NCBI GenBank assembly: GCA_903887035.1
Contig: CAISOG010000074.1
Location: 1-24,209 of the forward strand
Direction: 5' to 3'
Length of the DNA stretch: 24,209 bases
Source of the DNA: an uncultured Holosporaceae bacterium
Lineage (GTDB): Bacteria; Pseudomonadota; Alphaproteobacteria; CAISOG01
Of the stretch, positions 15,990 through 21,365 are shown in pieces. The translations under genes were made by a program, and so were the position numbers. How positions within the stretch are numbered: position 1 is the first letter of the stretch; every line of letters begins with the position of its first letter. The notes under the pieces were generated by a model. It was given only the letters and a program-made list of their open reading frames with translations. It made no database searches and was not told where the DNA came from.

Positions 15990-17402
15990 CTAAATTTTCT
16001 TAAGCATGCCAAAGGCACCGGCCGCCCCCATTTTTCCCTTGGAAATAGCCTCCTCAGCCATCTCCTTACCAATATCAACAGTGAAAGAACCGCTAACATA
16101 TTGACCTGCCCAATCGTCGACGCGCCGTGCAAACATAATCAGCACGATTCCCGCGGTCAGCATGATCCAATAGCCGGGGGCGGCGAAAGAATTGCTGTTA
16201 CCCTGACCGCTTAGGGGGCCCGCGATAATGTCGGTGACCACCGCGCCGCCATCCGTGGGGGCGCTGGTGCCAGGTTTGCTGCCCAAACTTTGGGTGAATC
16301 CAACGCTAAGCATGGCAATGCTGATGGCGATTAGGGCGTTGATCATGATAAAGCCAATCGCCGAGTGAATCAGGGCGCTGATACAAATTTTTAAGGGTGC
16401 CCGCCCAATGGGCAGGGCATAGGCGGCAATGGCCAGCGGGGCAATCACGGCAACAAACAGCCATCGGAATAAATAGGTGATCATAAACAATCCAACCAGC
16501 AGGGCGCCCAATCCATAGATTAAGGTCATGACAAAACCAGCCAAAAGCCAGTCCCAACCTTTTGGTGGCAGAGTCCATTGAATTTTTTGCATGGAGGAAA
16601 TGCCCGCAACAATCCCCACCCCAACCGCACGCTGAAGCGCATAAAATTGACAGTTTAGGGCGTTTTTGACATTGGCTTTTTTCTCATCCTTCGTGCTGCC
16701 ATCAAAACGGATGTTGCCGCATTCCAACACTTGGCCTTCGGGGCCCACCACCGCCTCCGTCGTTGTGCCAGAGCCCGATTTGACGGTGCGCAGGGGTTTG
16801 CGCAGCGGGTTGAATTGGTCATAGGGAGCCTGCAACACAATCATCGGATCTGATCCGCCAAAAACAGCCTCTAACATCGCATGGCCGCCGCGCATCCCGA
16901 CCGAGATGGCGGGGTTAAAGAAATAGTCGTTGAAAAAATTAAAGTTGCCCAAGGCCGTCAGTACCAGCAGGGTGATGGCCAGCCTGGCCGCGATTTTGTT
17001 GGCCATCCCCCCGACGCTGTCCAGCGCGCCAAAGGGCATCAACAGCTTGCCCGCTTGCAACAACACCCACAACGCAATGATAATGGCAATCAGTCGGCGC
17101 ACATTGCCGCCCAGAAAGTCAAACATGGCCTGACCCATTTCATAGGCCACATCGACCATCATCGCGCTGATCGGGCAAATCCAACAGCTGTACATCATCA
17201 GGTTGTACATATCGGCGGGATTCGCCGCCCCACTGTTGGTGCCTGGCGTGTTGTTGGGGCCGGTAGAACCCTGCGCCAGGGCGGCATGAGGATCGCTGCC
17301 CAACAACAGCATCAACAACAGCACCATCAGGCCAAAACGGATCGATTTGACCCGCAGCCATGATAGACGAAAACATTGGTGGATTGCTGTGGTCATGATC
17401 AT
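15990..17402 (-). CDS. VirB6/TrbL-like polytopic membrane protein, paralog A (CWICP)
   Basis: Signal peptide ending ALA-Q, CWICP, KLLMPFG, several hydrophobic helices, IAPLAIAAYALPIGR. ATG 17402 lies one base after the paralog B stop. The CDS is secure; the VirB6 family call is motif-level only. Confidence 0.65.
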   Translation of the reverse strand: MIMTTAIHQCFRLSWLRVKSIRFGLMVLLLMLLLGSDPHAALAQGSTGPNNTPGTNSGAANPADMYNLMMYSCWICPISAMMVDVAYEMGQAMFDFLGGNVRRLIAIIIALWVLLQAGKLLMPFGALDSVGGMANKIAARLAITLLVLTALGNFNFFNDYFFNPAISVGMRGGHAMLEAVFGGSDPMIVLQAPYDQFNPLRKPLRTVKSGSGTTTEAVVGPEGQVLECGNIRFDGSTKDEKKANVKNALNCQFYALQRAVGVGIVAGISSMQKIQWTLPPKGWDWLLAGFVMTLIYGLGALLVGLFMITYLFRWLFVAVIAPLAIAAYALPIGRAPLKICISALIHSAIGFIMINALIAISIAMLSVGFTQSLGSKPGTSAPTDGGAVVTDIIAGPLSGQGNSNSFAAPGYWIMLTAGIVLIMFARRVDDWAGQYVSGSFTVDIGKEMAEEAISKGKMGAAGAFGMLKKI

Positions 17403-17403
17403 T

Positions 17404-19032: not shown

Positions 19033-21113
19033 TACGATGCCCTTGTCCGCTGTTGCCGAACCGATTTTTCGGTTTTGTTCCACGCATGCTGCATCGGGCT
19101 GCCCAACAAGCCGCCCAGATGTTTGGTTTTACGCCCACTAGGATCAGTGGTTTCATAGCGGTGAATAACGGTGCGCCCCGCGGTGCTGGCCACCTTTTGC
19201 CCGACCATCATGGCGCCCGTTTTGGCAAGGCCACCCGCCTGGGCGCTAAGCCCCATTGCCATTGAATCCATCCCCCGACCACCAATCAGATAGCCCGCAA
19301 TGCCAGCGGCTTTACCCAACATTTGGATGCCCAGCACCGCCACCGCCATCAGCACCCAAAAATACGGTTTGGTTATCCGAATCAAATCCTGAATCGCCTT
19401 TTTGCCATCATTGCTGTCAACCTGCTTAATCAGCTCAGACGCGTTGTAAACATTGCCAACCTTGTCCAACCCTGGAACAGCCTTAACAACATTGGTTAGC
19501 ATATTGTCGGTCATCGCAATCACAAAGGCGACCACCACCCCCAGGATCAGCAGGGTCATCATGGATTGGGCGACCGTGCGCACCCCTTTTTCAAAGGCCT
19601 TGCGGGTTTTGGGATATATGGCCGATGCCACCAAAAACGGACTGATCATCATCACAATGCCCAGCTGGATCACGGCATCAATCATATAGATGGGCAGTAG
19701 GATAAGCAGCAGGCCAAAGGCCAACATTATCAAAATCGACCCAATGACAACGTCCAGGTTCATTAACAGATACCACATCTGGTTTTTGCTTAGGACAACA
19801 AAATCCGCAACCAATCCAAAACGCGCCTTTGTTTCGCCCGTAAAGACCGTTGCGGAGCTTTTGAAGGCCTGAAAGCCCAGCATGGGCAGCACGCCCAGGG
19901 ACTTTTGCATCCTGTCCAGCTGGCAACTCATGGCCTTACTGACCACACTGGGGTTATCGTTGATGGATCCGGTTTTGCCTTGCAGCGCCCGCTGTCCCGC
20001 GATGGTAGAGGGGCAGTCGGTAGCGCTGCCCATCAAATCGGGCGATTGTTTGTTAATAATTCTATCCTGCACCTGCTGCTGAATCCCGCTGCCGTAATCC
20101 ATCAAAAAGGACATGACGGGGCCATAACCATAATCCCAAACAACATTCATATGGCTAAGCGTGGTTAGCACCAACAGGGTCAGCCCCAATCGCGATACAA
20201 CAGCATTGCCAATCTTCTTGGCGCCATCGGCGGGACCAAAAGGCAACAACAGCTTAATCGCCTCCAGCAGCAGCCATACCGCCAAGGCCAAGGCCAAAAT
20301 CTTTCTTAGGGCGGGCGCCAAAATCTCAAACATGGCGTTGGCGTACTCAACGCTGGTGTCAAACACCACCTCAAACAGCGGGCACAGCCAACAGGCGGTC
20401 ATGCCAGGCAGATAGGATGAAACAGGGATATAGCCATTGGCGACGGCGATCATATCGCTGATCATGGTGCCAAGGTAATTAAGCCCTTGCCCCAAAGAGT
20501 TGCACATGTAACCACTAACTTTTTGAACCCAGTAAGCTTTATCACCAGGACCCCAAGCATCTACCATTTTTTGTATTAGGGCTTTTGTTTGCGGACTATT
20601 CTTGTCGCAAATATTTGGGGTATTCACGATATCATCCACAATACCCCTTTCGCATAATCGCCCCACACCAGCGATAAGATATTCCGTGGTGCTGGGGGAA
20701 GTTTGCGTGGATAGCCAAACACCGCCCCCAATAGACACTGACCCAACTGGCTTCGTGGGATTGGCTGAAGCGCCTAAGGATTGTGCCAAGGCGGCGCCGT
20801 TAAGACTTGCAGTGCCTAAACAGCCTGCAGCTAGGCCATTTCTGTAATTGTCCTTAAAATACCCTTCCTGAAAGGGGCCACAGTCCCATCTGCTTGGATT
20901 GGTGCATTTGCGGCAATTGATATCGCTGCCGCACTCTTGCCCATTAATGGCTAACAGTGCCTTCCCAATATTTGGGTGAAGACAATTAAGGCCAAAACCA
21001 CCAGCACAGCTGTGCAATGGCGGAATGCTCGCATGCGCGCGTGTCGGCTGCGCCAGCAGGATCGCCAGCATGACAGCCGCCATCGCAATGCCCCTACGCC
21101 ACAAACCCTGCAC
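19032..21113 (-). CDS. VirB6/TrbL-like polytopic membrane protein with Cys-rich N-terminal domain, paralog C (CWLCP)
   Basis: Signal peptide ending AHA-S, ~210 aa domain with 10 Cys, CWLCP, KLLLPFG, PIYMIDAVIQ...ISPFLVASAIYPKTRKAFEK. Start uncertain: GTG 21227 (ORF limit), GTG 21113 (preferred, keeps the basic n-region) or ATG 21083. Confidence 0.7.
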   Translation of the reverse strand: MQGLWRRGIAMAAVMLAILLAQPTRAHASIPPLHSCAGGFGLNCLHPNIGKALLAINGQECGSDINCRKCTNPSRWDCGPFQEGYFKDNYRNGLAAGCLGTASLNGAALAQSLGASANPTKPVGSVSIGGGVWLSTQTSPSTTEYLIAGVGRLCERGIVDDIVNTPNICDKNSPQTKALIQKMVDAWGPGDKAYWVQKVSGYMCNSLGQGLNYLGTMISDMIAVANGYIPVSSYLPGMTACWLCPLFEVVFDTSVEYANAMFEILAPALRKILALALAVWLLLEAIKLLLPFGPADGAKKIGNAVVSRLGLTLLVLTTLSHMNVVWDYGYGPVMSFLMDYGSGIQQQVQDRIINKQSPDLMGSATDCPSTIAGQRALQGKTGSINDNPSVVSKAMSCQLDRMQKSLGVLPMLGFQAFKSSATVFTGETKARFGLVADFVVLSKNQMWYLLMNLDVVIGSILIMLAFGLLLILLPIYMIDAVIQLGIVMMISPFLVASAIYPKTRKAFEKGVRTVAQSMMTLLILGVVVAFVIAMTDNMLTNVVKAVPGLDKVGNVYNASELIKQVDSNDGKKAIQDLIRITKPYFWVLMAVAVLGIQMLGKAAGIAGYLIGGRGMDSMAMGLSAQAGGLAKTGAMMVGQKVASTAGRTVIHRYETTDPSGRKTKHLGGLLGSPMQHAWNKTEKSVRQQRTRAS

Positions 21114-21365
21114 CCCTGCCCCGCTGAAACAAAAAACACCTGACCAGTCTAACGCGAAACTGTAATCTTTTTTATGAAATTTTTCTGAAGGCCGATGGGT
21201 GCCAGAAGGGGCATCCAGGCCAAACACTTATAACCCAATAAAATTATGGGCGAAACCGCTGTGGCCGTCCACAATTCTTTACCATGATCTTGCCAGAAAG
21301 TTTGCGTATTCTATCCTTCAATCTGTCGCACGGTGGCGGCAGCAATTTTGAAAAAAGGAATGACG

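Follow-up and report, generated by a model that had tools for sequence, protein, structure and literature searches.

The 24,209-nt window analysed here, which is the entire contig C74 of an uncultured Holosporaceae bacterium, contains three adjacent genes transcribed in the same direction, and these genes (paralogs A, B and C) raise the question of which machinery their products belong to. In the first-pass annotation, they were considered to be an orphan operon and a candidate for an undescribed envelope or host-contact system or, alternatively, a module that had become separated from the other genes of a scattered type IV secretion system (T4SS). The gene limits, the protein lengths and the two junctions reported at that stage were confirmed (Table 1). 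The flanking genes were also confirmed by Pfam analysis, with efp and a DUF192 gene on the downstream side of the trio and a lipoprotein gene at the other end.

The stop/start overlap between A and B implies that the two genes are probably coupled in translation, and both junctions of the trio are one-base overlaps in the related contig L013. The DUF192 gene adjoins the trio in all the relatives examined; in G002 and in L016 it is located upstream of the trio and faces the other way. Since its side and its orientation vary among relatives, this gene is probably outside the trio operon. The 17-kDa-type lipoprotein gene also adjoins the trio in L013-L015 and can be regarded as a conserved neighbour, at most a putative member of the system. 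As already noticed in the initial reading of the sequence, the surroundings of the trio are devoid of partners: the 5 kb to each side of it contain no T4SS gene, the window encodes neither an integrase nor a relaxase, and no tRNA was found. No repeats flanking the trio were found either, and a mobile-island origin is unsupported. Promoter and terminator scans of the locus gave results that were no better than those obtained with shuffled sequences.

Table 1. Position of the paralogs, of their junctions, of the neighbouring genes and of the shared core motifs in the window.
Feature	Position	Strand	Remarks
Paralog A	19032..21113	-	693 aa, GTG start; longest ORF to 21227
Paralog B	17404..19032	-	542 aa, ATG start
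Paralog C	15990..17402	-	470 aa, ATG start
A/B stop/start overlap TAATG	19030..19034	-	Sequence read directly
B/C junction TAG-a-ATG	17400..17406	-	1-nt gap at 17403; sequence read directly
17-kDa antigen/glycine-zipper lipoprotein, upstream of the trio, divergent	21333..21860	+	Pfam PF16998 and PF05433
DUF192 gene, 119 bp downstream of C	15301..15870	-	Pfam PF02643
CWLCP in A	20379..20393	-	Sequence motif
CWACP in B	18694..18708	-	Sequence motif
CWICP in C	17172..17186	-	Sequence motif
KLLLPFG in A, end of first hydrophobic helix	20235..20255	-	Sequence motif
KLLLPFG in B	18532..18552	-	Sequence motif
KLLMPFG in C	17028..17048	-	Sequence motif

The identity of the three proteins was examined by profile and fold comparisons. 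A and B matched the Pfam family PF04610 (TrbL) with scores of 35.2 and 43.6 bits, respectively, the curated cut-off being 25.9 bits. No Pfam match was obtained with C even at E <= 10, and none of the three proteins matched NCBIfam. C was recognized by the A2 profile with a score of 419.6 bits, and A, B and C are mutually paralogous, with 23-27% identity over ~390-440 aa and BLASTP E values of 5e-38 to 9e-26 (6.5e-28 for C versus A and 8.6e-26 for C versus B). In the PDB, the paralog profile matched TrwI best (E 0.01). The fold comparison covered the AF2 models of A and B, that is two of the three paralogs (pLDDT of 76.4 and 74.6, respectively; pTM of 0.70 for B). The seven top Foldseek matches of the B model in the PDB were all TrwI/VirB6 chains. 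TrwI was aligned over 271 of 272 residues with the B model (Z 15.2) and over 270 of 272 with the A model (Z 14.9); the runner-up, DotA, gave Z scores of 10.2-10.5 and unrelated helical proteins did not exceed 9.3. A hydropathy scan revealed 5-7 hydrophobic segments per paralog beyond the leader, a polytopic organization as in VirB6/TrbL, for which about five or more hydrophobic helices are expected, and one B ortholog is labelled 'type IV secretion system protein' at NCBI. A, B and C are VirB6/TrbL family proteins, in agreement with the assignment first made from the sequence alone.

The core motifs CWxCP, KLL[LM]PFG, [WN]DY and the P[FL]xxA...R hairpin were found in each paralog, the third being WDY in A and B and NDY in C. 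The first core helix has the CWxCP motif at its N-cap; in the B model this motif occupies residues 109-113, directly before the helix 112-130. Both cysteines of this motif are at least 90% conserved among 124 and 101 diverse family members. The core thus begins with a conserved CxxC, whose two cysteines are probably joined by a disulfide in the periplasm. The lysine of KLLxPFG is invariant in 13 of 13 sequences from four families.

Each paralog begins with a putative signal peptide in which a charged n-region and a hydrophobic core are followed by AHA, SYA or ALA. In A, this N-terminus precedes a ~200-aa domain containing 10 Cys, the VirB6 core (residues 237-613) and a short tail. The AF2 model of the Cys-rich domain is of low confidence, and a search of the ESM Atlas with this domain gave no usable match. 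B is composed of the signal-peptide-like segment, a long linker rich in Ser, Thr, Gly and Ala and predicted to be disordered, the VirB6 core (residues 105-453) and an Ala/Gly-rich tail. Such a tail had been attributed to all three proteins; this description holds for B, in which Ala and Gly account for 45% of the last 89 aa, whereas it is weak for A and C, with only 27-29%. C is the most conserved member of the trio (97% identity to its ortholog in the sister genome G003). The dN/dS ratios calculated versus the G003 orthologs are 0.20 for A, 0.21 for B and 0.08 for C, which corresponds to purifying selection on each gene; this selection on the trio members predates the diversification of the genus.

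The other components of a T4SS are present in the same MAG (G000), a freshwater alphaproteobacterium with a small genome of 1.33 Mb. Two virB2 genes, virB3, virB4 and virB8, as well as virB10-virB11-virD4, were found on other contigs; in G003, the trio shares its contig with the virB10-B11-D4 island, at a distance of ~23 kb. VirB4 gave a single match each in G000 and in G002, a 99%-complete genome, and VirB8 gave one match in G000. VirB9 was not found by Pfam in G000, nor in the 287-aa ORF occupying the VirB9 position in G003, so that the gene set does not establish a complete machine. A 565-aa exported protein encoded after virB4 displays a weak N-terminal match to the VirB5 model TIGR02791 (E 0.0015, 18 bits), far below the cut-off of 132.

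The A2 profile gave exactly five matches in G000, the trio and a pair of paralogs on contig C204, and these five VirB6 proteins span 470 to 1213 aa. The long paralog of the pair carries an M23 peptidoglycan peptidase domain, and housekeeping genes surround the trio as well as the pair. The same five orthogroups were recovered in G002 with a support of 100/100 each. A partial ORF at the end of contig C64 was considered as the missing N-terminus of a partial VirB6 of C204, which would have placed the pair beside virB4; this was rejected, the two being separate genes at separate loci in G003 and G002. In G003, the gene order is virB2s-virB3-virB4-X-Y-Z-virB8, X being the weakly VirB5-like protein, and X, Y and Z possess at most one hydrophobic segment each. 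No polytopic membrane protein is encoded in this virB4-virB8 interval, the usual position of virB6, and the trio and the pair are on this ground the only VirB6 proteins of the machine; no other VirB6 candidate was found in the genome.

The distribution of the family was then surveyed across Alphaproteobacteria. The CxxC-bearing VirB6 subfamily comprises 1446 clusters (E <= 1e-10) and was present in 30 of 300 sampled genomes, nearly all of them of 0.9-2.5 Mb. Positive genomes usually harbor 3-6 copies, most often about five. The genes form arrays of three to six members that are usually away from virB3-virB4, and in 13 other genomes, 15 array loci had neither virB3 nor virB4 in the flanks examined. 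VirB4 was detected in 29 of the 30 positive genomes versus 52 of 301 overall, the single exception being a genome that is only 78% complete. In the VirB6 tree the paralogs group by lineage, which indicates that the expansions were independent or were homogenised. A search for related loci with a 6-sequence alignment gave hits only within the genus and in two distant MAGs. The notion of an orphan system is not supported in view of the vir genes on the other contigs, the G003 island, the virB4-virB8 interval devoid of polytopic protein and the distribution of VirB4; the other possibility raised at the outset, a detached module of a scattered T4SS, is upheld.

Rather than a new system, the trio represents a component detached from a machine whose kind is already known. 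Most probably, it constitutes one operon coding for three diverged VirB6-family subunits of the single P-type (VirB/D4) T4SS of this genome. The paralogs would insert into the inner membrane via their N-proximal helices, and the trio and the C204 pair would jointly form a VirB6 platform as the base of the periplasmic stalk. This platform would support the assembly of the VirB5-like protein and of the VirB2 pilins and would let through the substrates delivered by VirD4/VirB4/VirB11. Each subunit could contribute its own periplasmic N-terminal module: the Cys-rich domain in A, the flexible Ser/Thr/Gly linker in B and the M23 peptidase in the long C204 paralog. A mixed ring is favoured over alternative machines because of the translational coupling and because the same core residues are kept in every paralog. 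The VirB6 of R388 is a pentamer carrying a VirB5 pentamer (PMC9259494). In the present machine, the stalk base may plausibly be a hetero-oligomer, perhaps a heteropentamer. The strict form of this proposal, an obligate heteropentamer made of one copy of each of the five paralogs, with distinct modules around the channel, the M23 domain acting for VirB1 and CxxC disulfides locking the ring, is speculative and we hold it as rather doubtful. If true, the five-fold symmetry of the stalk would explain why VirB6 has repeatedly and independently been expanded to about five copies in Alphaproteobacteria with small genomes. As three to six copies occur across families, a strict one-of-each pentamer cannot be general.

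The paralogs could also be alternative subunits, each forming its own homopentamer and conferring on the single T4SS another specificity for substrate, host or growth stage. The strong dissimilarity of the N- and C-terminal extensions between paralogs, the independent expansion in several lineages and the copy number of 3 to 6 are compatible with such an exchange, the grouping by lineage in the tree also fits a diversification for alternative uses, and the purpose of the rvh duplications has been called a mystery (10.1101/2025.08.29.673095). However, all five paralogs are kept in every good genome of the genus, and the overlapping or abutting codons maintained in the relatives would point to a joint, near-equimolar expression rather than to switching. 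It also counts against alternative subunits that, going by the title of a 2009 article by Bao et al., four VirB6 paralogs reportedly interact in Ehrlichia. Subunit exchange is consequently regarded as unlikely. A lower probability still is given to a mainly exported or surface-exposed role of at least one paralog, in which the extensions would be the functional part (antigen, adhesin or effector), anchored by a VirB6 core without any other role. The exported domain of A with its 10 Cys, the disordered linker of B and the faster evolution of A and B compared with C speak for this role, whereas the cores, and not the extensions, are conserved across families, and the N-domain of A combines a low-confidence model with the lack of recognisable relatives.

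A VirB6-derived membrane complex that works independently of the T4SS and serves, for instance, adhesion, the uptake of DNA or the maintenance of the envelope would account for the location of the trio among housekeeping genes, at least 5 kb from any vir gene in the window, and for the array loci found elsewhere without virB3 or virB4. Such a complex is highly improbable: the array is accompanied by VirB4 with the lone exception of the incomplete genome mentioned above, and among those searched no complete genome keeps the array in the absence of VirB4, VirB10 and VirD4. Moreover, given that the virB4-virB8 interval contains no polytopic protein and that no further VirB6 candidate exists in this genome, the T4SS would have no VirB6 at all if these paralogs acted independently.

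In itself, the finding is an ordinary one: a scattered T4SS with a detached VirB6 island, in a lineage known from lake metagenomes alone. Its value is comparative and concerns the reason why host-associated Alphaproteobacteria multiply VirB6. For the CxxC-type proteins, the survey adds a large subfamily that is nearly confined to small genomes, nearly always co-occurs with VirB4 and is mostly encoded in detached arrays. The correspondence between five copies and the five-fold R388 VirB6 ring provides a concrete hetero-oligomer hypothesis, and the fact that one paralog is recurrently fused to an M23 peptidase suggests a way for such systems to do without VirB1.

Among characterized proteins, TrwI/VirB6 of R388 (PDB 7O3V, 8RT9 and 8RTD; Macé et al. 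2022, PMC9259494) shares with the trio the whole fold of long alpha-helices, the N-proximal hydrophobic helices and the Pfam family, at a sequence identity of 14-16%. In contrast to the trio, TrwI is encoded by a single gene, forms a homopentamer and has neither a signal-peptide-like leader nor N-terminal extensions or Ala/Gly tails. The second-best structural match, DotA (PDB 9NGY) from the Dot/Icm system of Legionella, is a VirB6-like pentameric protochannel carrying IcmX, which is VirB5-like (review PMC12857230). It differs from the trio by belonging to a type IVB system, by its much larger size, by its single-copy gene and by an identity of 8-10%.

The parallel drawn at the outset with the tandem virB6 paralogs of Rickettsiales is upheld. 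In Rickettsia, five RvhB6 proteins (RvhB6a-e) are kept in a scattered 'archipelago' (PMC2653234). As for rvh, the present system occurs in a small-genome alphaproteobacterium, its P-type T4SS genes are distributed in several islets, and it includes five extended VirB6 paralogs that are strongly diverged (about 75-80% divergence) and have unique flanking regions (PMC2653234, Gillespie et al. 2009). The rvh virB6 array is directly downstream of virB3-virB4, whereas here the genes are split 3+2 over two separate loci and it is X, Y, Z and virB8 that come after virB4. The single matches of VirB4 and VirB8 contrast with the duplicated virB4, virB8 and virB9 of rvh. The latter is devoid of virB5, of which the gene of the 565-aa protein would be a putative counterpart here. 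The host may also be a different one: rvh is found in Rickettsiales, and the orthologs studied here are labelled by NCBI as Holosporaceae, Rhodospirillaceae or Alphaproteobacteria bacterium. Without sharing all the defining features of rvh, the T4SS to which the trio is assigned resembles it.

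On the minus strand of the window (C74, one of the 256 contigs of G000, a MAG of 1.33 Mb, ~80% complete and with 57% G+C), three long ORFs follow one another head to tail. The three coupled and co-oriented paralogous genes, A, B and C, described in the first-pass annotation are thus borne out by the ORFs, by their two junctions and by a BLAST-level pairwise identity of 23-27% across ~390-440 residues, on which their products are considered as true paralogs. Both junctions are one-base overlaps in a related contig, indicating that the coupling is conserved. The motifs ascribed to a shared core (CWxCP, KLLxPFG, [W/N]DY and the P[FL]xxA…R hairpin) were all found in A, B and C, whereas the Ala/Gly-rich tail claimed for each gene is clear in B only and not in A or C. 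Their N-termini look like signal peptides with a putative cleavage, and the dN/dS values against sister-species orthologs (A 0.20, B 0.21, C 0.08) reveal purifying selection on each gene.

Positions of the genes and sites considered in the text
Feature	Position	Strand	Remark
Three ORFs	window 15990-21227	minus
Paralog A	window 19032-21113	minus	693 aa; start as in the first-pass annotation
Paralog B	window 17404-19032	minus	542 aa; start as in the first-pass annotation
Paralog C	window 15990-17402	minus	470 aa; start as in the first-pass annotation
A/B junction	window 19030-19034	minus	reads TAATG
B/C junction	window 17403	minus	single base between TAG and ATG
Lipoprotein	window 21333-21860	plus	Rickettsia 17-kDa-antigen / glycine-zipper family; oriented away from A, B and C; neighbour in close relatives
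Left end of the window and syntenic region of G003	window 1-232; L064:744-16820		basis for the position of C113
Longest VirB6 paralog	L009:6213-9854 (C204)	minus	1213 aa; M23 domain ahead of core (Pfam 56 bits)
X	L010:508-2205 (C64)	minus	565-aa exported protein directly after virB4; weak N-terminal VirB5 match (TIGR02791, E 0.0015)
VirB2/TrbC-like protein	L010:5606-6589 (C64)	minus	327 aa
Six co-oriented ORFs upstream of virB10	L064:6104-11301 (C47 of G003)	minus	287, 307, 320, 302, 274, 125 aa
vir genes of G025	C14, 56-96 kb (L038-L040)	single strand	virB3-virB4, two virB8, virB10-virB11, five tandem VirB6 paralogs
Double HTH_3 protein	L045:13178-14170; L046:12330-13301		~325 aa; G021-like alphaproteobacterial lineage

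A and B passed the curated Pfam cut-off for TrbL/VirB6 (PF04610) with 35.2 and 43.6 bits, respectively, and C gave no direct Pfam match. A family profile of 13 paralog cores retrieved TrwI, the VirB6 of plasmid R388, as top match among PDB sequences (E 0.01), and the top seven Foldseek matches of the AF2 model of B (pLDDT 74.6, pTM 0.70) were all TrwI chains. With VIA-align, 271 of the 272 TrwI residues were aligned to B (Z 15.2) and 270 to A (Z 14.9; model pLDDT 76.4); the core therefore covers the complete VirB6 fold. DotA of Legionella, a VirB6-like protochannel, was the runner-up for both models (Z 10.2-10.5) and unrelated helical proteins did not exceed 9.3. The core begins four residues ahead of CWxC, which caps its first helix. 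These results agree with the proposed assignment of A, B and C to the VirB6/TrbL family, and an ortholog of B is already named "type IV secretion system protein" by NCBI.

No secretion gene besides the trio was found among the window genes. The suggested search of the genome for T4SS partners recovered two virB2-like genes, virB3 (weak match), virB4, X and a partial ORF on C64, a partial virB8 on C42, and virB10, virB11 and virD4 on C113. C204 carries two more VirB6 paralogs, a 582-aa fragment and the longest one, and a profile search of all ORFs gave exactly five in G000. In the sister genome G003, the order virB2s-virB3-virB4-X-Y-Z-virB8 is colinear; none of X, Y and Z shows more than one hydrophobic segment, so the usual virB6 position is without polytopic protein. 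X is fast-evolving: its identity is 70% to the G003 protein and 28% to that of the more distant G002, versus 98% and 86% for VirB4. Between X and virB8 lie Y and Z (403 aa), both unassigned. Pfam detected no VirB9 in G000, nor in the 287-aa ORF that occupies its expected place in G003. This ORF is the first of the six upstream of virB10, which are without Pfam match and may code for effectors or for highly divergent forms of VirB9, VirB8 or VirB7. The VirB2/TrbC-like protein, with three successive hydrophobic-segment pairs and internal self-similarity, resembles pilin hairpins fused in tandem; in relatives, three to five virB2-like genes are consecutive.

A profile search covering 1.84 billion representatives matched 2030, 1446 and 413 clusters at E ≤ 1e-3, 1e-10 and 1e-30, respectively. 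Among the matches listed, CxxC is present in nearly all of 149 representatives (CWxC in 83), and both cysteines reach a conservation of 90% or more in alignments comprising 124 and 101 members. Conjugative-type VirB6 of large genomes (G019, G113) matched the C-terminal half of the profile only; the N-terminal part with its CxxC is therefore characteristic of a subfamily. At E ≤ 1e-8, it was present in 30 of 300 Alphaproteobacteria drawn evenly across families, nearly all with genomes of 0.9-2.5 Mb and usually with 3-6 copies, most often about five. VirB4 was found in 29 of these 30 genomes, versus 52/301 overall, the single exception being 78% complete. The fetched flanks of 15 array loci (13 genomes) contained no virB3/virB4, and array and virB3-virB4 are 27-64 kb apart where they share a contig (G025, G109, G215); thus, detachment from virB3-virB4 is common in the subfamily and not peculiar to G000. 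The vir genes of G025 C14 occupy a 45-kb stretch with unrelated genes interspersed, which may be an intermediate between operon and archipelago. In two other loci, the double HTH_3 protein directly after the VirB6 array may be its dedicated regulator. MAGs of the G000 lineage originate in freshwater lakes.

The survey and the T4SS genes elsewhere in G000 support the more modest of the two readings proposed earlier, a detached module of a scattered T4SS. The bolder one, an independent system, is unsupported given the VirB4 co-occurrence and a T4SS devoid of other VirB6. In G003, the virB10-B11-D4 island shares a contig with the trio, from which it is ~23 kb apart, and lies 8 kb past dnaG, the first gene of the window. 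By this synteny, C113 is probably located outside the window on its left side, at ~8 kb from the end and before dnaG, and the lack of secretion genes in the window would therefore be partly a contig-break effect. The trio is syntenic with the lipoprotein, DUF192 and efp in close relatives; its orientation is inverted relative to DUF192 in the more distant G002 and L016, indicating that A, B and C move as one unit. The same five paralogs, split 3+2, occur in G003 and in G002 (99% complete), where trio, pair, virB4 and virB10 are each on separate contigs. In a maximum-likelihood tree, all five pair with their own G002 orthologs (support 100/100), and paralogs of other families group by lineage, their expansions being therefore independent or homogenised.

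A, B and C are co-produced proteins of the VirB6 fold, and the T4SS of G000 has no VirB6 outside the five paralogs. In R388, an inner-membrane VirB6 pentamer bears a pentamer of VirB5, and a role in recruiting VirB2 to the growing pilus has been proposed for it (PMC9259494). Trio and pair together would form such a stalk base. The three-gene coupling favours a mixed ring. A pentamer with one copy of each would match the number of five paralogs, although other lineages, which have three, four or six copies, speak against this as a strict rule. Extended VirB6 proteins bear unexplained extra domains (PMC12857230). An M23 domain recurs in one VirB6 paralog in several families, ahead of or within the core, with fusions also in G002, G003, G134/G286, G230, L043, L046 and several representatives; it could provide the cell-wall opening for which VirB1 serves elsewhere.

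In Rickettsia, five RvhB6 are retained within an islet archipelago (PMC2653234), and the reason for such duplications is still called a mystery (10.1101/2025.08.29.673095). Because its array is not downstream of virB3-virB4, its virB4 is single copy and a VirB5-like gene is possibly present, the G000 system was not assigned to the rvh T4SS of Rickettsiales, although it works alike.
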